Positions 1 through 9,000 of a DNA stretch of 64,000 nt are shown one piece after another. The notes below the pieces were generated by a model. The model was not told where the DNA came from. It was given only the letters and a program-made list of their open reading frames with translations, and did no database searches. The stretch covers positions 64,001-128,000 of the forward strand of contig JBBRPR010000011.1 of assembly GCA_038227875.1 (NCBI GenBank), given 5' to 3'. Position 1 is the first letter of the stretch. Each line of letters begins with the position of its first letter. The DNA comes from Planctomycetota bacterium (GTDB taxonomy: Bacteria; Planctomycetota; SZUA-567; H5-PLA8). The position numbers and the translations under genes were made by a program.

Positions 1-98
1 CCCACCAGCGGCTTCTTGGTCGCTTCGTCGATGAACCGGGCCGCTTCGCCGCGCACCACGATCACCTTGTCGCCCTTGCAGATCTTCGTCTTAATCAT
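1..98 (-). CDS. rplX: 50S ribosomal protein L24, N-terminal part (runs off window)
   Basis: Manual translation from ATG at 98 gives [22 protein letters not shown], the KOW-type KGDKVIV start; it follows rplN in canonical order. Confidence 0.9.
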
Positions 99-151
99 GC
101 CAACCTCTTATGTGCCAGTCGTTCGTTGATGTCCGCTTTTGTCCGCTTACT

Positions 152-541
152 TCAGACCACTTCGGCGGCCAGTGAGACAATCTTCATGAAACCCTTCGAG
201 CGCAGTTCGCGAGCCACCGGTCCGAAGATGCGCGTGCCGCGCGGTTCTTTTTCCGGCGTGATCAACACGATCGCGTTGTTGTCGAAGCGCACCGACGATC
301 CGTCAGCCCGCTTGACCGCCTTGCGCGTGCGCACCACGACTCCGCGCACAACCAGCTTCTTCTTGTCCTTCTTGCTGGTGGTCATGAACTCGCTGCCCGG
401 CTGCACCTTCTTGACGGCCGCGACAATGATGTCACCGACCGAGGCGTAGCGACGGTGCGTCCCACCCAGCACCTTGATGCACATCGCGGTTCGAGCGCCG
501 GTGTTGTCGGCGACTACCAGCATGGTGTGATGTTGAATCAT
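152..541 (-). CDS. rplN: 50S ribosomal protein L14
   Basis: [34 protein letters not shown] motifs. Confidence 0.99.
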
Positions 542-612
542 CTCTCGTTATCCGTCCCTTCAGCGACTGCTACCGTTATCCAGATCAAGAAAATTAGTTC
601 GCAAACAGCTCT

Positions 613-1020
613 TTAGGCCTTGGCTTCCGGCGTGGTGCTTTCCGGAGCGGCCGGCGCGGCGGCGGAAACCTGCTTCTTCTGCGCCACGTCCACTTCCTTG
701 ATGTCCAGCGTGCCGAACACGGCGGCGCGTTCCACCACCTTCACCAACCGCCAGCGCTTCTGCTTGGAGATCGGGCGGGTTTCGACCAGCGATACGCGGT
801 CGCCCTTCTTGGCTTCGTTCTTTTCGTCATGGGCATGCAGGTGCGTGGAGCGGAAAATGTACTTTCCGTAGCGCGCGTGCTTCACCAGGCGCTTGATTTC
901 GACAGTGATCGTCTTCTGACGCACGTCGCTCAAGACAATTCCCTCGACGACACGGCGGTCGCCTCGTCCGGTTTCGGATTCCGTCTTTGCCGTGCCTGCC
1001 GCCGCTGTCTCACTGGCCAT
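613..1020 (-). CDS. rpsQ: 30S ribosomal protein S17 with N- and C-terminal extensions
   Basis: HAHDEKNEAKKGDRVSLVETRPISKQKRWRL; operon position. Confidence 0.98.
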   Translation of the reverse strand: MASETAAAGTAKTESETGRGDRRVVEGIVLSDVRQKTITVEIKRLVKHARYGKYIFRSTHLHAHDEKNEAKKGDRVSLVETRPISKQKRWRLVKVVERAAVFGTLDIKEVDVAQKKQVSAAAPAAPESTTPEAKA

Positions 1021-1111
1021 GCCTGTTCCTCACTCTTCGAAAGGTCCGTTAAACACACTTCAGTCCTGCAAAATCGTTCGGTACTGCCACTGCTAATTCT
1101 GGTTAGCGCGC

Positions 1112-1588
1112 TTAGCGCGACTGGCCGACGTCCTGGCGATCAAGGCACGCGCGGCGGCGCTTGGCTTCCGCCAGGCGAATCGCGTTGCGGTCGGGAGCGG
1201 TGGCTTCACCGCGGATGCGGATCTTGGCGCGCTTGAGCATCGGCTTGACCTTGCGGCTGCCGACCGGCTTTTCCAGCTGAGCCTTGATCTCGGCGGCGCG
1301 GGTGTCGACCAGCTTCACCAATTTGGCGAATTCCGGCTTGGCGCCTTCGGCCTTCGGCGTCAGTGCGGCGACCTTCGCGTCCAGAATCGTGCGCAGCGAC
1401 CGTTCGCGCAGAATCGACTGGATGCGCGCGATCAGGCGTTTGCCGGCGCGCTTTTCGTGCGCCTTGATGGCTTCGCCCGATGCGCCCTTGACCACGCCGT
1501 CGAACAGGCGCTTCTTTTCCAGCATCATCTGGTCCTGCAGTTCCTGATTGGTCTTTTCGCGCAGCGTCTTTGCGTTAATCACGGCCAT
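1112..1588 (-). CDS. rpmC: 50S ribosomal protein L29 with long C-terminal extension (158 aa)
   Basis: N-terminal AKTLREKTNQEL...KRLIARIQSILRER matches L29; lies between rplP and rpsQ. Confidence 0.9.
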   Translation of the reverse strand: MAVINAKTLREKTNQELQDQMMLEKKRLFDGVVKGASGEAIKAHEKRAGKRLIARIQSILRERSLRTILDAKVAALTPKAEGAKPEFAKLVKLVDTRAAEIKAQLEKPVGSRKVKPMLKRAKIRIRGEATAPDRNAIRLAEAKRRRACLDRQDVGQSR

Positions 1589-1642
1589 GACTCTATCGTG
1601 CTCCTAGCTTCGTGCTCTTTTTTCTGTCGCACTGCTTTGTGT

Positions 1643-2062
1643 TTAGAATTCCTGGCGGCGCTTCAAAAAGCGCATGCGGAACGGCATCTTGCCCGACTGC
1701 AGGCGGAACGCTTCGCGCGCCGCGGCTTCCGGAACACCGGAGACTTCAAAGAGCACCATGCCGGGCTTGACGACGACGGCCCAGTACTCGATTTCGCCCT
1801 TGCCCTTACCCATGCGGGTTTCGGCGGCGATCGCGGTCACCGACTTGTGCGGGAACACCCGGCACCAGTAGCGGCCTTCCGTACCGATGAAGCGGGAAAG
1901 CACCACGCGCGCGGCTTCCAACTGCTGCGCACTCAGCCACCCCGGCTGCATCGCCTGGATTCCGTAGTCACCGAACGCCACATAGTTGCCGGCCGTCGCG
2001 TTACCGCGAATGCGTCCGCGCTGGCTCTTGCGGTGCTTGACTCGTTTGGGCATTAACGCCAT
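1643..2062 (-). CDS. rplP: 50S ribosomal protein L16
   Basis: LMPKRVKHRKSQRGR, ETRMGKGKG motifs. Confidence 0.99.
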   Translation of the reverse strand: MALMPKRVKHRKSQRGRIRGNATAGNYVAFGDYGIQAMQPGWLSAQQLEAARVVLSRFIGTEGRYWCRVFPHKSVTAIAAETRMGKGKGEIEYWAVVVKPGMVLFEVSGVPEAAAREAFRLQSGKMPFRMRFLKRRQEF

Positions 2063-2135
2063 GGAACTATGTCCTCACTCAATCTTCGGGTCTACTGCTT
2101 CACACTTCTAGTACGGCTTACGCCATCAGTCCGGC

Positions 2136-2807
2136 TTACTCGGCGGCCTGAGCCATCTCGATCTTTTCCTTCTGGATCTTGCCCTTGTAGATCCACACCT
2201 TCACGCCGATCACGCCGTAGTTCGTGGCAGCTTCGCCCAAACCGTATTCGACGTCGGCCGTCAGGGTATGGAGCGGGAGCGAGCCGACCATGTACGATTC
2301 GCTGCGGGCGATTTCCGCGCCGCCCAATCGACCGGCCACGATCACCTTCACGCCCAGCGCGCCCTGCTGAATGCTGGCTTCGACGGCCTTTTTCATCGCG
2401 CGGCGGAACGAGGCGCGCTTGAGCAACTGCTCGGCGATGCCATCGGCCACCAGCTGCGCGTCCAGTTCCGGCTTGGTGATTTCACGGATGTTCACCTGGA
2501 CCTTCTTGCCCGATCCGTCCTTCGAGAACTTCTGGAGCTCTTCGCGGATCTTGTCGATTTCCGCGCCCTTCTTGCCGATCACCACGCCCGGGCGCGATGT
2601 GAACAGAAATACGCGCGTCTCGTCGCCGGTGCGTTCAATTTCAATCTTGCTCAGGCCGGCCTGCTTGAGGCGCGACTTGATGAACTTCTTGATCTTCTGG
2701 TCTTCGACCAGATAGTTGCCAAAGTCCTTTTTGCGCGCGTACCAGCGCGACACCCACGGACGCGTGATGCCGACTCGAAATCCGTATGGATGAACTTTTT
2801 GACCCAC
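2136..2807 (-). CDS. rpsC: 30S ribosomal protein S3
   Basis: MGQKVHPYGFRVG, GRLGGAEIARSE, YGVIGVKVWIYKG; GTG start with AGGAG upstream. Confidence 0.99.
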   Translation of the reverse strand: MGQKVHPYGFRVGITRPWVSRWYARKKDFGNYLVEDQKIKKFIKSRLKQAGLSKIEIERTGDETRVFLFTSRPGVVIGKKGAEIDKIREELQKFSKDGSGKKVQVNIREITKPELDAQLVADGIAEQLLKRASFRRAMKKAVEASIQQGALGVKVIVAGRLGGAEIARSESYMVGSLPLHTLTADVEYGLGEAATNYGVIGVKVWIYKGKIQKEKIEMAQAAE

Positions 2808-2885
2808 TGTTTAGCTCCTGGCTCGTTCGAGACGCGTGTTTCGGGTCGCCCCGGGTTCACGCCGTCTCTGCATTCCAATGTTGAA

Positions 2886-3386
2886 CTATGCCGCCTTTTC
2901 CTTCTTACCCTTCTTGCCCTTCTTGCTGTCCTTCGCGTCTTCAGCCTGGCGCGGTCCGAGGACCACCGTGATGTGCGCCATGCGGCGCAGGATCGGGCGG
3001 GCACGGCCGCGGTCACCGGCGAGGAAGCGCTTCAAGCGCGGGCCTTCGTCGGCATACACTTCGGCGACAAACAAATCGTTGGCGTCGGCTTCGCCTTCAC
3101 TCTTCGAATCGGCGTTGCCCAGCGCGCTCAAGAGCACGCGGTCAAGGTAGTACGCGGCGCGCTTGCTGGAGTAGCGCAGGATTTCGCGCGCACGTTCCAC
3201 GTTCTGGCCACGGATCTGATCGACCACCAGCCGCACCTTCTGGGGCGCGATGCGGATGTTGCGCAGCGACGCGCCATAGAAGCCGTCGGGATAGACCAGC
3301 TTGCTGGTCGGTGCGTTCTCGGCGCCGCTGTGCTTGCGCTCGATACGGCCCTGGCTCTTGACCTTACTGCGATGAATCTTTGACAT
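2886..3386 (-). CDS. rplV: 50S ribosomal protein L22 with N-terminal extension and basic C-tail
   Basis: RIAPQKVRLVVDQIRG, ADEGPRLKRF..GRARPILRRMAHITVV; start set at MSKIH because the longer ORF overlaps rpsS. Confidence 0.97.
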   Translation of the reverse strand: MSKIHRSKVKSQGRIERKHSGAENAPTSKLVYPDGFYGASLRNIRIAPQKVRLVVDQIRGQNVERAREILRYSSKRAAYYLDRVLLSALGNADSKSEGEADANDLFVAEVYADEGPRLKRFLAGDRGRARPILRRMAHITVVLGPRQAEDAKDSKKGKKGKKEKAA

Positions 3387-3468
3387 GATCTTTCTTTCAC
3401 TCCACCTCAAACTGAAAAACCGATCGCGAACCCGAGTCCGGCCGAACTTACATACTGCTGGCGCGTCG

Positions 3469-3786
3469 TTACTTCTTGTCCGCCGCCGGAGCAGCCGGCG
3501 AGGCCGCAGGAGGCTTGGCTCCGCCACCCGCACCCGAATGCCCGCGGAAGACGCGCGACGGCGAGAACTCACCGAGCTTGTGTCCCACGAAGTCTTCGGT
3601 CACGTACACCTTGATGTGCTGCTTGCCGTTGTGGACCATGAAGGTGTGACCCACGAAGTCCGGCAGAATCGTGCAGGCGCGTGCCCACGTCTTGATCGGG
3701 TCGCGAGCGCCCGACAGCTTCTGCTTGGCAACCTTCTGCGCAAGCTTCTCATCGACGTAGGGACCCTTCTTCATCGAACGTGACAT
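3469..3786 (-). CDS. rpsS: 30S ribosomal protein S19
   Basis: [24 protein letters not shown]. Confidence 0.99.
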
Positions 3787-3823
3787 TGTTTACGGCTCCT
3801 GGCTCTTTAAGCTGCCACTACAA

Positions 3824-4672
3824 CTACAGCGTCTGCTGCGCGGCGCCCTTGCGCCGGCGGATGATCTGGTTGTTCGTGCGGGCCTTCGGCTTGCGCGTCT
3901 TGCCGCCCTTCGCCAGCACGCCACTGGGCGACTGGGGAATGTGGCCTTTTCGGCGCGCAGCACCACCGCCCATCGGATGGTCGACCGGATTCTTCGCCAT
4001 ACCGCGGGTCGTCGGGCGGCGTCCAAACATGTGCCGGTTTCGGCCTGCTTTTCCGACCGTCACGTTCTGATGATCCAGATTACCGATCTGGCCCACCGTC
4101 GCGCGGCAGTCTTCCGGAACGAAACGCATTTCACCGGAGGGCAGCACGATCGTGACCTTGCCGCCTTCCTTGGCCATCAGGCGCGCCACACCACCAGCGG
4201 CGCGGACCATCTTGCCGCCCGAGCCCGGCTGGAGTTCGACGCAGTGAATGTCCGTCGACAGCGGCATGTTCTTCAACGGCATCGCGTTGCCAACGTCAGG
4301 CTCCACGCGGTCACCGGAGATCACGGTCTGTCCGACCTTGAGGTGCAGCGGCGCGATAATGTAGCGCTTTTCGCCGTCCTTGTAGTGCAGCAGAGCGATG
4401 AAAGCGGAGCGGATCGGATCGTACTCGATGCCCGCAACCTTCGCCGGAATGTTGTCCTTGTCGCGGCGGTAGTCGATCTTGCGGTACTGCTTCGCGTACG
4501 TGCTCTGCATCGCGCGGTTGGTGATGCGGCCGTGAGCGTTGCGGCCACCGGAGCGCGGAATGCGTTCGAGCAGCGACTTTTCCGGCTCGTGCTTGGTCAG
4601 TTCCTTGCGGAAATCGATGACCGACGCGCCGCGCGTACCTGCCGTGATGGGTCTGTAAAATCGCAATGCCAT
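3824..4672 (-). CDS. rplB: 50S ribosomal protein L2
   Basis: IEYDPIRSAFIALL, KNPVDHPMGGG motifs. Confidence 0.99.
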   Translation of the reverse strand: MALRFYRPITAGTRGASVIDFRKELTKHEPEKSLLERIPRSGGRNAHGRITNRAMQSTYAKQYRKIDYRRDKDNIPAKVAGIEYDPIRSAFIALLHYKDGEKRYIIAPLHLKVGQTVISGDRVEPDVGNAMPLKNMPLSTDIHCVELQPGSGGKMVRAAGGVARLMAKEGGKVTIVLPSGEMRFVPEDCRATVGQIGNLDHQNVTVGKAGRNRHMFGRRPTTRGMAKNPVDHPMGGGAARRKGHIPQSPSGVLAKGGKTRKPKARTNNQIIRRRKGAAQQTL

Positions 4673-4739
4673 GACTGATTCCTAATCCAGAAAGTCGACT
4701 GTCGATCTCTTACCGCACTGCCTGCCACTGCCTTGCTTA

Positions 4740-5360
4740 CTACTCTTCACTTCCCCGGCTGAACCATTTTCGCCGGTCCCAGGGCCACAGTCTCAGGCGA
4801 ACGATGCCTTTGATCTGGTTGCCGGGTACCATCCCCAGCGTATCCCCGCCCAGCGACACGCGGCTGTCCTTGCTCTGGCCGCGGTTGTCTCCCATCACGA
4901 AGTAGTACCCAGGGGGCACCACGAACGCCTGTCCTTCACTGAAACCCGGGAGCGTGTCAGCTCGAGTCGGGTCGAAGGATTCTTCAATCTTGGTGCCGTT
5001 TACCCATACGTAGCCGCCGTGCACTGCCACTGTGTCGCCGGAAAGTCCGATTACGCGTTTGATGTAGTCTCGCGTCATCCGGGGCGATTTGTCGTGGTCG
5101 ATCGCTTCGAAGACAATCACATCGAACTGGCTGACCTTGCTGAAACGGTAGGTCAATTTGTCGATCACCAGCCGGTCACCGTGGTGGAACGTCGGGTACA
5201 TCGACGGCCCGTCCACAACTGAAACCTGGAAAATGAACAGGTAGATCAGCAGCGCCCAGATGGCGGCGCGGATCAGCAGTCCCACCCACTCCTTCAACAA
5301 GGATTCATCGTCTTCGTCGCGCGCGATGTTCTTCGGCGCTTGCTTCACTTCCTCCGTCAT
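4740..5360 (-). CDS. lepB: Signal peptidase I (S26)
   Basis: Single N-terminal TM, GPSMYPT (catalytic Ser), DYIKRVIGLSGD (catalytic Lys), YFVMGDNRGQSKDSR. Confidence 0.97.
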   Translation of the reverse strand: MTEEVKQAPKNIARDEDDESLLKEWVGLLIRAAIWALLIYLFIFQVSVVDGPSMYPTFHHGDRLVIDKLTYRFSKVSQFDVIVFEAIDHDKSPRMTRDYIKRVIGLSGDTVAVHGGYVWVNGTKIEESFDPTRADTLPGFSEGQAFVVPPGYYFVMGDNRGQSKDSRVSLGGDTLGMVPGNQIKGIVRLRLWPWDRRKWFSRGSEE

Positions 5361-5385
5361 GTTCCGGCTCCCAGCGAGCCAGCGG

Positions 5386-5724
5386 TTAGATCAACTCGAT
5401 TTGCTTCGAATCCTTGGTCAAGCGGATGATCGCCTTTTTGCGAATGCGGGAGAAACCGGACTTGCCCGCCTTCATGCCGCGAAACGCCTTCTTGCGAGGC
5501 TTGACGATCATCGTGTTCAGCGACTGAACCTGCACGCCGAACGCGGCTTCGATCGCCAGCTTGATCTGCTGCTTGTTGGCCTTGACGTGGACTTCGAACG
5601 TGTAGCGGCCCTTCTTGTCTTCGGCACCAGCAGAAACCATGTCGTGACTCTTTTCAGTCAGGACCGGCCGGCGCAGAATGGCGTACGGGTCGGACAACAG
5701 TTTTGCGGCGCGATTGCGGCTCAT
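5386..5724 (-). CDS. rplW: 50S ribosomal protein L23
   Basis: ILRRPVLTEKS, YTFEVHVKANKQQIKLAIE, KKAIIRL. Confidence 0.98.
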   Translation of the reverse strand: MSRNRAAKLLSDPYAILRRPVLTEKSHDMVSAGAEDKKGRYTFEVHVKANKQQIKLAIEAAFGVQVQSLNTMIVKPRKKAFRGMKAGKSGFSRIRKKAIIRLTKDSKQIELI

Positions 5725-6347
5725 TCCTTCACCACCTCACTGATGTTTTCCAGTGTGTCGACGGTCATCAAAATGTGTTTGTACTTGAGGAGATCGTAAG
5801 CGTTGAGATTGCGGGCGGGGATGATGCGGACGGATTCGACGTTGCGGACCGACTTGACCAGGGCCTTGCCCGGTTCGCGCGCCGTTACCAGGCACGTTCC
5901 GGCGTTGAGGCCCAGGGCCTTGAGCGCGGTGGTGAAGCGCTTGGTCTTCGGCGCATCGTAGTTCAGAGCATCGATCAGCTTGATCTGCTTGTCGATGAGT
6001 TTGGACAGCAGCGCAGACTTCAAGGCTTCGCGGCGCATGCGCACCGGCATATCCTTATGGTAGTCTCGCGGCCGCGGTCCGAAGGCGTTACCGCCACCCT
6101 TCCACAGCGGAGAGCGCTTCATACCGGCGCGGGCGCGTCCGGTATGCTTCTGCTTCCACGGCTTGACGCCGGAGCCGCTGCGATCGGCTTTGGACTTGAT
6201 CTTGTGGGTACCGACGCGGAGATTGGCTTCGTAGCGAATGAGCGCCTGATGGAGCAGCTTGCGCCGCACCTTCTCGCCCAGGATCTTCTCATCGAAGGAG
6301 ATCGCGCGAACCTGACCGCCGGATTCGTTGTAGACCGGAATTTCCAT
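5721..6347 (-). CDS. rplD: 50S ribosomal protein L4
   Basis: KPWKQKHTGRARAGMKRSPLWKGGGNAFGPRPRDY. Confidence 0.99.
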   Translation of the reverse strand: MEIPVYNESGGQVRAISFDEKILGEKVRRKLLHQALIRYEANLRVGTHKIKSKADRSGSGVKPWKQKHTGRARAGMKRSPLWKGGGNAFGPRPRDYHKDMPVRMRREALKSALLSKLIDKQIKLIDALNYDAPKTKRFTTALKALGLNAGTCLVTAREPGKALVKSVRNVESVRIIPARNLNAYDLLKYKHILMTVDTLENISEVVKE

Positions 6348-6545
6348 TTTTTACCACCAAAACAAAAAAGCCGACGTCGTTGGGACTTCCGGTTAAGGCC
6401 GCCACGCGCGATCAGTGGCTACAAACCTTTCCGAAGCACCCGAACGACTTCGACCCTTAGGTCTTTAGCTATCCTTGAGCTCTGACGTTACGGGCTTCAT
6501 CCCGCTTTCGAGCTCTTTAGGGTACGACTGCCAACCAACAAGGGA
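6348..6545 (-). promoter_or_regulatory. Putative structured 5' leader of the rplD-initiated operon
   Basis: Non-coding ~200 nt with several hairpins (GAGCTC..GAGCTC enclosing CGGG-ATGAAG-CCCG; GACC-TAAG-GGTC; GCCAC..GTGGC) and a U-rich tract before the start codon. Confidence 0.55.
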
Positions 6546-6551
6546 AGTGAG

Positions 6552-6579
6552 ATATTAGCGACGATCCGCGTGCCGTCAA
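6552..6579 (-). promoter_or_regulatory. Sigma70-type promoter for the r-protein operon
   Basis: TTGACG-16 nt-TAATAT, with an additional TTGACA directly upstream. Confidence 0.55.
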
Positions 6580-6686
6580 TGTCAAATTGCGAAAATTGCA
6601 CATGTATTTTTTCGCGGGTCATTTTGCGCACCCTAATAACTCACCTACCCTAAGATTTCTGTGCTGATCTCGAGCAGATTTTCGGG

Positions 6687-8798
6687 TCAGCGCGTCACCG
6701 CCCAATTCACCCACATCTGTTGCAGGCGCTTCACATCCATATTGTAGACTTTCTCGAACGCTTTCTCGCTGTCCATGCCGTCCTTGAGCGCCAGGCAGTA
6801 TTTCGGAAAAAGTTTTGCGTCGGTATTCATCATGAACGACACCATTGAATAGCACGTCAAATAATCCAGCGAGCTCATTCCGATCGGCTGAATCAGAAAC
6901 GCCTGGTCCCACGTTTTCAATTTTCCCTGCGACGCGTACTTTTTAATTTCGTTGTCCCAGTTGTCGCTGAAGCGCACTTCATTTTTCTCGTACTGAAATG
7001 CATAGACCAGATTTTTATGCGTAATCACGTTTTCGCAGTACGACGCGAAACCATAACGCAACCACGTTGGCGCTTTGTTGTCCGTCGCCTGCACTATTTC
7101 CATTTCGCCGAATTGGTAGAGCGCCATGTGTTTGGGATGCGCCATCGCGCCGCGATTGGCATTGAAGACGCCGCGGTGCGGGAGCAGGAATCCGCCGGAA
7201 TTCTGCGCCATCGCCCAGTTCTGCGTCGGTTCCTGCGCCATCAGCGCGTTGACGAACGCCAGGTACCCCTGCGCGTCCCACGCGATCATCAATTCGTCGG
7301 TGTCGGGCCGCGTCTGTGTGAGCACGACAGTCTGCGTCAGTTGTTCGAGCTGCCCGGTGAGCTGCTCCAGCGCGGTGGCGACGCCGCGCACTTCCGGCTC
7401 GGGCATCGTCGAACGGATCGTGACGTGATGCGTCTCGACAGTGCTGAGCTTCGCGCGCGTGAGCTGCTCCCAGTGTTCGTTGATCGCCTGGACACCCGAC
7501 AGGCGCGTCTGTTCGGCAGCAACCAGTGGAGCCGCGTCTTTTCCAGCCTGACATTTAGGGCACCAGCGCCACGGCACCGCCGCGGCGTACGCGGTGGCAT
7601 TAAGCGGCTCGTTGGAAAAGCGGATGTACGTCTTCGCCGGAATGATCGGCACGTAGGTCATGCCCAGACATTGCGGACAGACCGCCGGCGCCGCTGCTAT
7701 GTTCGGCGCGGGAGCGGGCGTAAACGGTTTGGGCGGCGTGGCCGCGATGGTATTTTTCGGCGACGCAACGGGCGGCTTTTTGGATGTGTCGGGTTTCGGA
7801 TCGTCGTCGGGCGGTGGCGTTTTCTTCGCCAGCTCTTTCATTACCTCGCTGGACGGGTTGGACGGATCGTTGTTCGGAGTGGACTTCGGCGGCACGTTGG
7901 TCGCGTTTTCATTTTCGTCCTCGCGTCCGGTCTTCCGTTCTTTGGTGCTCAGGATATCCGCGACAGTTTCGGGAGGTTTCGGAGCCGGCGGCGCTTCCGG
8001 GCGCGCTCCGATTTCCATGCCGTCGTTGTCGCTCGTTTTTTCATCCAGCTTTTTCGTTACGGAGTCGCTCGGCGGTTTGGCGGTCGCGACCGTCGAAGTG
8101 CCCGTCGACAGCGCAGTGGCGGTAGCGGTGCTCGCGGGAGTTTTCGGATCTAGCGGACCGCTTGCATGCTCGGTCCCGCTCGTCGGAACCTTGCGTGGCC
8201 AGTAAACAGCCGCGGTAATGATCAGGCCAATCGCCGCAACGCCGGCCAGCGCGCCGAGCACCGGGAGGCCAGCGCTCTCGGTTTTGCGCTTCGCCGGTTT
8301 GTGCGCGTGCGTGGGATGAGCGTGCGCATGCGTCTCCACTTTGCGCGCGCCAGGTTTTTCTTTATCGCCCGGCACCGAAGCCACGATGAATGAATCGCCG
8401 TCGCTCTGATCTGGCACCATCACTTTGGCTTTGCACGACGGACACGGTTGCGCCGTGCCCGCAAACTTCGCTTCGAAGCCCGTCATCTTCGCGCAACTGG
8501 GACAGGCAAACTTGATGTACTTTCCGGCAGTCGCTGTTGCACTCGGCGCGGGTGCCGCAACGGGTGGAACCGGCACGTTAGCCGCTGCGCTGGCCTCAAC
8601 GGGCTTCGGCGGTTCCACGGCTTCGAGTTTCGGTTCGCCTTCAGCCGGGGTCGAAGCAGCGGCTGTTTCCGGCGTCTTTTCTACGCCGGGAATGCGGATG
8701 GTCTGCTTGCAGCCCGGGCAACTCGCTTTCTTGCCGGCGTGGATCTCCGGCACACGCACCGCGGCTTTGCATTCAGGGCATTGAAAATCGATGGCCAT
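6687..8798 (-). CDS. Membrane-anchored multi-zinc-ribbon protein with degenerate peptidase MA/DUF1570-like C-terminal domain
   Basis: CPEC..CPGC and CPSC..CPSC ribbons, TM helix, Pro-rich linker, CPQC..CPKC, then PTWLRYGFASYCE; start at MAIDFQC after GGAG. Confidence 0.7.
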   Translation of the reverse strand: MAIDFQCPECKAAVRVPEIHAGKKASCPGCKQTIRIPGVEKTPETAAASTPAEGEPKLEAVEPPKPVEASAAANVPVPPVAAPAPSATATAGKYIKFACPSCAKMTGFEAKFAGTAQPCPSCKAKVMVPDQSDGDSFIVASVPGDKEKPGARKVETHAHAHPTHAHKPAKRKTESAGLPVLGALAGVAAIGLIITAAVYWPRKVPTSGTEHASGPLDPKTPASTATATALSTGTSTVATAKPPSDSVTKKLDEKTSDNDGMEIGARPEAPPAPKPPETVADILSTKERKTGREDENENATNVPPKSTPNNDPSNPSSEVMKELAKKTPPPDDDPKPDTSKKPPVASPKNTIAATPPKPFTPAPAPNIAAAPAVCPQCLGMTYVPIIPAKTYIRFSNEPLNATAYAAAVPWRWCPKCQAGKDAAPLVAAEQTRLSGVQAINEHWEQLTRAKLSTVETHHVTIRSTMPEPEVRGVATALEQLTGQLEQLTQTVVLTQTRPDTDELMIAWDAQGYLAFVNALMAQEPTQNWAMAQNSGGFLLPHRGVFNANRGAMAHPKHMALYQFGEMEIVQATDNKAPTWLRYGFASYCENVITHKNLVYAFQYEKNEVRFSDNWDNEIKKYASQGKLKTWDQAFLIQPIGMSSLDYLTCYSMVSFMMNTDAKLFPKYCLALKDGMDSEKAFEKVYNMDVKRLQQMWVNWAVTR

Positions 8799-9000
8799 CT
8801 GCACTCCGCTTCGCCGGGCTACGTTCGTCCAAATTCCATCCCGGTAGCATAAAGCACCCGGGCTCCGGCACAACTATGACGGGAACGTAACTGGGTTGCT
8901 GCCAGATTTGTACTATATATGGTATGCGTTCTTCGAAGTACCACCGGGCCAATTGGCACACAGGTCAGTCGCCCTAAAGAGGGGAGTGCAACGCTTCGAC

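Follow-up and report, generated by a model that had tools for sequence, protein, structure and literature searches.

The stretch analysed here, hereafter the window, comprises 64,000 nucleotides (nt) of a Planctomycetota genome (GTDB lineage SZUA-567; H5-PLA8; assembly GCA_038227875.1, contig JBBRPR010000011.1, positions 64,001 to 128,000). The minus strand of its first 6.3 kb harbours an S10-type ribosomal protein gene cluster in which a gene for a type I signal peptidase (family S26), lepB, lies between rplW and rplB, the full order being rplD, rplW, lepB, rplB, rpsS, rplV, rpsC, rplP, rpmC, rpsQ, rplN. The lepB gene (4740..5360, minus strand, as for all the cluster genes) starts with ATG and encodes 206 amino acids (aa), identified by Pfam, NCBIfam and alignment. 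Upstream of it, rplW (5386..5724) encodes an L23 of 112 aa that matches Ribosomal_L23; it is preceded by rplD (L4, 5721..6347), the first cluster gene in this genome, whose last 4 nt overlap the beginning of rplW. Downstream, rplB (3824..4672) encodes an L2 of 282 aa that matches Ribosomal_L2_N and Ribosomal_L2_C. The spacer between rplW and lepB (5361..5385) is 25 nt long and holds a GGGAG Shine-Dalgarno-like motif about 8 nt before the lepB ATG, and the spacer between lepB and rplB (4673..4739) is 67 nt long, with AGGA ahead of the rplB ATG. A first-pass annotation of the sequence had reported the three genes as co-oriented, with these very gaps, and both statements proved exact.

To judge by its sequence, lepB encodes a conventional signal peptidase I that is anchored in the membrane, looks active, and belongs to the short "Gram-positive" type, like SipS and SpsB. 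The enzyme matches Pfam Peptidase_S26 (PF10502) over profile positions 2–168 of 168 (E 2.5e-41, 141.9 bits for a cut-off of 22.9), and NCBIfam TIGR02227 (signal peptidase I) with 149.2 bits for a cut-off of 47. A short acidic cytoplasmic N-terminus is followed by a single hydrophobic anchor at about residues 26–48 (the stretch WVGLLIRAAIWALLIYLFIFQV, identified by eye in the translation), and then by the catalytic domain with Ser53 and Lys101. Ser53, followed by Met54, lies in box B (GPSMYPT), and is invariant in the 18 aligned orthologs as well as retained in the more distant copies from G078 and family f13 that are described below. Lys101 lies in box D (DYIKRVIG, within YIKR) and is likewise invariant in 18/18 orthologs, as are G157, D158, R160, S163, D165, S166 and R167 of box E (GDNRGQSKDSR). 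These orthologs share 43–63% identity with the window copy. When all operon-embedded copies were considered, boxes B, D and E were retained in 22 out of 22, S-L replacing S-M in one of them. The earlier description of lepB as intact, with its Ser and Lys motifs, is therefore confirmed by the full-domain scores and the invariant boxes. Pfam revealed no extra domain, the match spanning residues 23–192 of 206.

Among enzymes of solved structure, the best matches are Gram-positive ones, 4nv4, 4me8 and the Staphylococcus aureus SpsB fusions 4wvg and 4wvh, with which LepB shares the catalytic domain and the boxes of the Ser/Lys dyad. The alignment covers residues 43–202 (E 2.7e-20, the value for 4nv4), and the likeness is one of sequence only. 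Unlike the solved enzymes, the planctomycete copies bear variable N-terminal tails: in the operon peptidases (L010–L027) these cytoplasmic tails are acidic, of low complexity, range from roughly 20 to more than 90 residues before the anchor, and finish with a conserved ..L(K/R)EW.. motif directly before it.

The position of lepB is conserved throughout the window's order. An ortholog was found in 19 of its 20 species genomes (the unpublished genome G017 is among the 19); the twentieth, G019, is 61% complete, and it has no match to L23 either. The gene order L23-LepB-L2 was read in 17 of the 18 related loci that hold the ortholog, and LepB-L2-S19 in all 18, the distance from lepB to rplB ranging from 4 to 206 nt in these relatives. 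As a result of the insert, rplW and rplB are separated by 691–1221 nt in 16/16 loci of the order, whereas in 23/23 genomes outside the order the spacing is -1 to 119 nt. In the sister orders, rplW adjoins rplB in the four readable loci (4/4), with gaps of 2–32 nt in three of them. The ortholog profile scored 175–307 bits within the order; among the 42 other genomes of the class it matched in two, at 81 bits or less. In G005 (L151, L213) the cluster is split exactly between rplW and lepB: rplD-rplW lie on contig C197, where a convergent gene follows, and lepB-rplB-rpsS and the subsequent genes lie on C105, behind a CN_hydrolase (nitrilase-family) gene. Therefore, lepB travels with rplB.

The rplW-rplB pair is one of the most stable bacterial gene pairs. 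For a survey of its spacing across the phylum, Pfam matches to L23 and to the N-terminal domain of L2 were located in 146 Planctomycetota genomes. In 143 of these the two matches were present, and they always shared a contig and a strand. The two matches were 125–253 nt apart, meaning that the genes are adjacent, in 137 of the 143, which upholds the first-pass claim that rplW and rplB almost always adjoin. They were 687–935 nt apart in six genomes: G000 (the genome of the window), G004 and G006, all three from the window's order, and G046, G078 and G134. In five of these six the insert is a signal peptidase gene, so that lepB at this junction was observed in three distant lineages. G078, the sole genome of its class in the collection, carries rpsJ-rplD-rplW-lepB-rplB and further cluster genes on a 63-kb contig. 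G046 is a member of family f13, and all three f13 genomes have lepB at the junction, within a canonical cluster (rpsJ-rplC-rplD-rplW-lepB-rplB...rpsE); there, lepB starts 7–10 nt after rplW and either overlaps rplB or sits 3 nt from it. The f13 peptidase, used as a query, gave no match at E 1e-12 in the nine other genomes of its class. The sixth genome, G134 (family f70), has an unrelated 188-aa gene at the junction (L211:2302-2868). Its product has an N-terminal hydrophobic anchor, matches no Pfam family, and is PsbP-like/DcrB-like by Atlas features (score 0.97). The spacing survey was needed because similarity thresholds alone miss f13 cases: E<=1e-25 caught one of the three f13 genomes, and E<=1e-36 none of them, though still G078.

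Outside the order, similarity searches covered 293 genomes and detected related short peptidases in 41. The genomic position of 25 such loci was checked by tblastn (22 from these 41 genomes, and three from a 400-genome sample): two were in the operon (G078 and G208) and 23 were outside it. For the remaining 19 of the 41 genomes, a comparison by eye placed the peptidase and L23 on different contigs. None of the 11 non-operon planctomycete homologs with neighbours read had a ribosomal protein gene beside it. A conserved context of another kind was considered for these homologs and rejected, as the neighbours vary (AsmA, M1 peptidase, HDOD, sulfatase, SDR, M24). A full-text literature search, judged from titles and the beginnings of abstracts, returned no description of lepB between rplW and rplB.

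Two quickly built maximum-likelihood trees placed the operon copies together with the remaining short planctomycete peptidases (SH-aLRT 92 and 89), next to a group formed by the Bacillota enzymes. A recent transfer from Bacillota was rejected on this ground, the operon copies falling outside the Bacillota group. The long planctomycete peptidases (480–714 aa) formed a separate group, which includes two paralogs of 577–578 aa from G000 and the best matches of the sister orders. The copies from the window's order were monophyletic (98), as were those from f13 (100), and the branching order between the two was ambiguous. When all 22 operon copies were constrained to a single clade, the likelihood was 8.26 log units above that of the free quick tree (p-AU 0.78). 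In a tree built from eight ribosomal proteins, the window's order was monophyletic (100) and sister to G021 (99), which has no lepB; G078 fell elsewhere, on a weak backbone, and f13 was outside the sampling of that tree. The gene may have reached its position by an old insertion followed by many losses, by spread between lineages, or by repeated capture.

Positions of lepB next to ribosomal protein genes are already known, and its place between rplW and rplB is a new form of this arrangement. A profile scan with the ortholog alignment listed 80 loci, generic S26 motifs dominating; one was planctomycete and 79 were not (mostly Bacillota). Among these listed matches, rplS lies directly upstream of the peptidase gene, on the same strand, in 71 of the 79 non-planctomycete loci, so that linkage of this peptidase type to a ribosomal protein gene is common. 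The rplS-linked relatives are, like the window's LepB, short SipS/SpsB-type enzymes encoded behind a large-subunit gene; sharing 34–42% identity with it, they are its nearest relatives outside Planctomycetota among the matches listed. A further example of the rplS-lepB pairing is presumably the rplS-lepB-rnhB segment of Mycobacterium tuberculosis, in the trmD-rplS-lepB neighbourhood. The partner differs, however: it is rplS in the Gram-positives, whereas here lepB sits between rplW and rplB, in the middle of an S10-type cluster. Among the listed matches, none of the 79 non-planctomycete loci has L4, L23, L2 or S19 within 3 kb, and in G000 rplS is on another contig (C19), with no S26 gene nearby.

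A second likeness is to secY, also a housekeeping gene of protein export, co-oriented inside a ribosomal protein cluster. In G000, secY (C11:58180-59220) belongs to the same cluster and strand as lepB, 9.5 kb downstream of it. Further non-ribosomal passengers of the spc and alpha clusters are adk, map and infA. The two cases differ in generality: secY is a passenger present nearly everywhere, and its place is constant, whereas lepB was at the rplW-rplB junction in five of the 143 Planctomycetota genomes, three of them from the window's order. As a side observation, G000 has a second full-length secY match (C26:97247-98287, 341.1 bits, versus 343.9 bits for the C11 copy), which could be a real second SecY or could belong to the 4% contamination of this assembly.

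We then considered how lepB may be expressed. The genes stand on one strand with short gaps, and a simple consensus scan for sigma-70 promoters and intrinsic terminators (positions 1–9000), of a kind that may not fit this phylum, showed neither at the flanks of lepB. No terminator-like site was found on the minus strand within the cluster. The sole sigma-70-like promoter match on that strand, a weak one, lies at 6579..6552, about 200 nt upstream of rplD. Overall, the number of sites was at the level of shuffled sequence (12 observed versus 13.8 expected). Both lepB spacers fold like their shuffles, with z-scores of -0.22 and -0.45 and no significant structure, and Rfam gave no match in 1–9000. 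The earlier remark that no terminator is seen around lepB is in line with these results. Co-expression with the ribosomal proteins is the likely, and natural, reading of such spacing together with the conserved synteny.

We therefore consider it probable that lepB has become fixed in the ribosomal protein operon as a passenger, co-transcribed with it, and that the supply of the peptidase tracks ribosome production. Held in the cluster as a passenger, as secY is, lepB would be read on the same transcript as rplD-rplW and rplB-rpsS, and LepB synthesis would rise and fall with that of ribosomes. For a housekeeping enzyme whose supply has to match the traffic of proteins being exported, such a coupling would be fitting. 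We infer the co-transcription, and the selective reason for it, from gene arrangement.

Several observations weigh against this reading. The consensus scans have the limits mentioned above, and an internal promoter within rplW may exist. Contigs from two metatranscriptome runs (X19 and X20) account for small shares of the window, among them stretches of rplB and the beginning of rplD, and none covers lepB. Moreover, G000 has four further S26 loci, two of 577–578 aa, one of 235 aa and a weak one of 167 aa (the S26 loci of this genome are on contigs C11, C130, C2, C1 and C13), and the sister orders have the long-type signal peptidase alone. It follows that the main housekeeping signal peptidase could be a gene other than the operon copy. 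The first-pass annotation had proposed a LepB tree to decide between main copy and paralog; the tree set the gene apart from the long paralogs, with the short type. It is one of five S26 loci in its genome. Finally, G134 has an unrelated exported-protein gene at this junction, which also fits a site that is merely permissive.

This last point leads to the alternative that survives best, although we hold it to be rather unlikely: lepB would be a neutral passenger, the rplW-rplB spacer tolerating insertions, the gene possibly having its own promoter, and its position carrying no meaning for expression. It might have spread by recombination via the conserved flanks, and have been kept because it is hard to remove. 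Besides the G134 gene, such a view accommodates the fact that the ribosomal protein clusters of G000 are rearranged anyway, rpsJ being on contig C47 and rplC on C91, so that the window cluster begins at rplD. It also accommodates the wide separation of the three lepB-bearing lineages on the ribosomal protein tree, whose backbone is weak, and the constrained tree, in which a single clade of operon copies was not rejected, as transfer between lineages would have it. However, a merely tolerant junction does not readily explain why an insert is rare (6/143) and yet from the same enzyme family in five of six cases, nor why the catalytic boxes have stayed intact through the radiation of a whole order at 43–63% identity. 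In f13, the overlap of lepB with rplB leaves no room for separate control, and in G005 lepB stayed with rplB after the cluster was split.

The first-pass annotation had gone further than a passenger gene, and proposed that lepB, together with extended exit-region proteins (L29, L22 and L23), may belong to a lineage-specific module coupling the ribosome to secretion. In such a module, the peptidase or its mRNA would, for instance, be placed at translating ribosomes. L23 and L29 do lie at the ribosomal tunnel exit. In the window, L29 (rpmC, 1112–1588) has 158 aa: beyond the usual domain of 57 residues it has a likely helical tail of some 95 residues, with a conserved terminal motif (..NRxAVRLAEAKRxRxxLxRxDxGQ); no Pfam family covers this tail. 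L29 is 116–175 aa long in 15/15 loci of the order (L149–L162 and the window), a C-terminal extension of about 60–100 aa, versus 76–78 aa in three sister-order genomes and 65–84 aa in the 18 readable loci of 20 other families. Within the order, both the lepB insertion and the long L29 are universal, and L23 is longer (106–117 aa) than in G078, f13 and G134 (94–96 aa). This co-occurrence amounts to one event on one branch, without statistical weight, and outside the order the link disappears. G078 has lepB at the junction with an L29 of 65 aa, an L23 of 96 aa and an L22 of 119 aa, and the three f13 genomes have it with an L29 of 67–69 aa and an L23 of 94 aa, L22 being short in both lineages. For the order itself, L22 lengths were over-estimated, as they include the part of the query N-terminus that lay outside the alignment, and no conclusion is drawn on an L22 extension. 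In addition, S17 (rpsQ, 613–1020, 135 aa) and S19 (rpsS, 3469–3786, 105 aa) bear tails rich in Ala, Pro and Lys, so that in G000 the extensions are not confined to proteins of the tunnel exit. The peptidase, as seen above, has no extra domain. Because G078 and f13 carry lepB with ordinary short L29 and L23, the module is unsupported, the joint presence of both traits in the order being one of shared ancestry, and we consider the module highly improbable. The co-occurrence check, whose failure the annotation itself had named as a refutation, went against it. We saw no evidence that LepB acts on or at the ribosome, and on present evidence the arrangement does not point to a new ribosome-bound secretion machine.

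A broader version would make the rplW-rplB junction a selected landing place for export genes. L23 is the ribosomal docking site for targeting factors, and lepB would have been placed or kept beside its gene on three or more occasions, or else on a single early one, with later spread. The membrane-anchored LepB would be made in step with new ribosomes and would tether the ribosomal protein locus, while it is transcribed, to the membrane (transertion); in the window's order, L29 would then have gained a tail that works with it. Taken as a whole, this reading strikes us as very improbable.

An assembly chimera or a misjoined contig, which the first-pass annotation had asked to be checked, and which the draft state of G000 (9.3 Mb in 176 contigs, 88% complete, 4% contamination) might have suggested, is negligible in our view, since 17 assemblies made independently within the order repeat the gene order (their contigs reaching 2.6 Mb), as do G078 and f13, DNA contigs from two other studies span the junction of lepB and rplB (X2 record 12, 4503–5261; X4 record 27, 4529–4880), and the G+C content runs smoothly through lepB (0.57–0.60, versus 0.58–0.63 in the surroundings). 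At the junction of rplW and lepB, no listed DNA contig spans by at least 31 nt on each side, X4 record 30 entering lepB by 18 nt; this junction of G000 is accepted because it is conserved in the independent assemblies.

The remaining genes of the cluster, identified as open reading frames with Pfam matches, are rplV (about 2886–3386), rpsC (2136–2807), rplP (1643–2062) and rplN (152–541). On the other side, a gap of 340 nt separates the 5' end of rplD from a gene for a 728-aa protein (6687–8873, minus strand). This protein has zinc-ribbon-like Cys pairs and a long linker rich in Pro and Ala, and matches Peptidase_MA_2 weakly (26 bits, below the cut-off). At the 5' end of rplD, RNA contigs from two soil metatranscriptomes of different studies match positions 6203–6400 with 0 and 1 differences, and extend beyond 6400. 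Because of this near identity, the window's organism, or a very close relative, was present in those two soil RNA libraries. Elsewhere in G000, a match to the HZS_alpha domain (PF18582, 47 bits; C20:20299-20523) lies inside an open frame of 937 aa. The domain had no match in the four sister-order genomes tested (G025, G021, G039 and G031), and a tentative assignment of the window's class to the anammox class was dropped; it also matches in a Bacteroides control genome, so that it is no anammox marker by itself.

A housekeeping export gene fixed between rplW and rplB in three distant planctomycete lineages adds a case to the short list of non-ribosomal genes in ribosomal operons, next to secY and to the rplS-lepB pair of Gram-positives. 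As a synteny marker, the insertion cleanly identifies an uncultured planctomycete order, and it provides a natural setting in which to ask whether signal-peptide processing is tuned by bacteria to their ribosome output.

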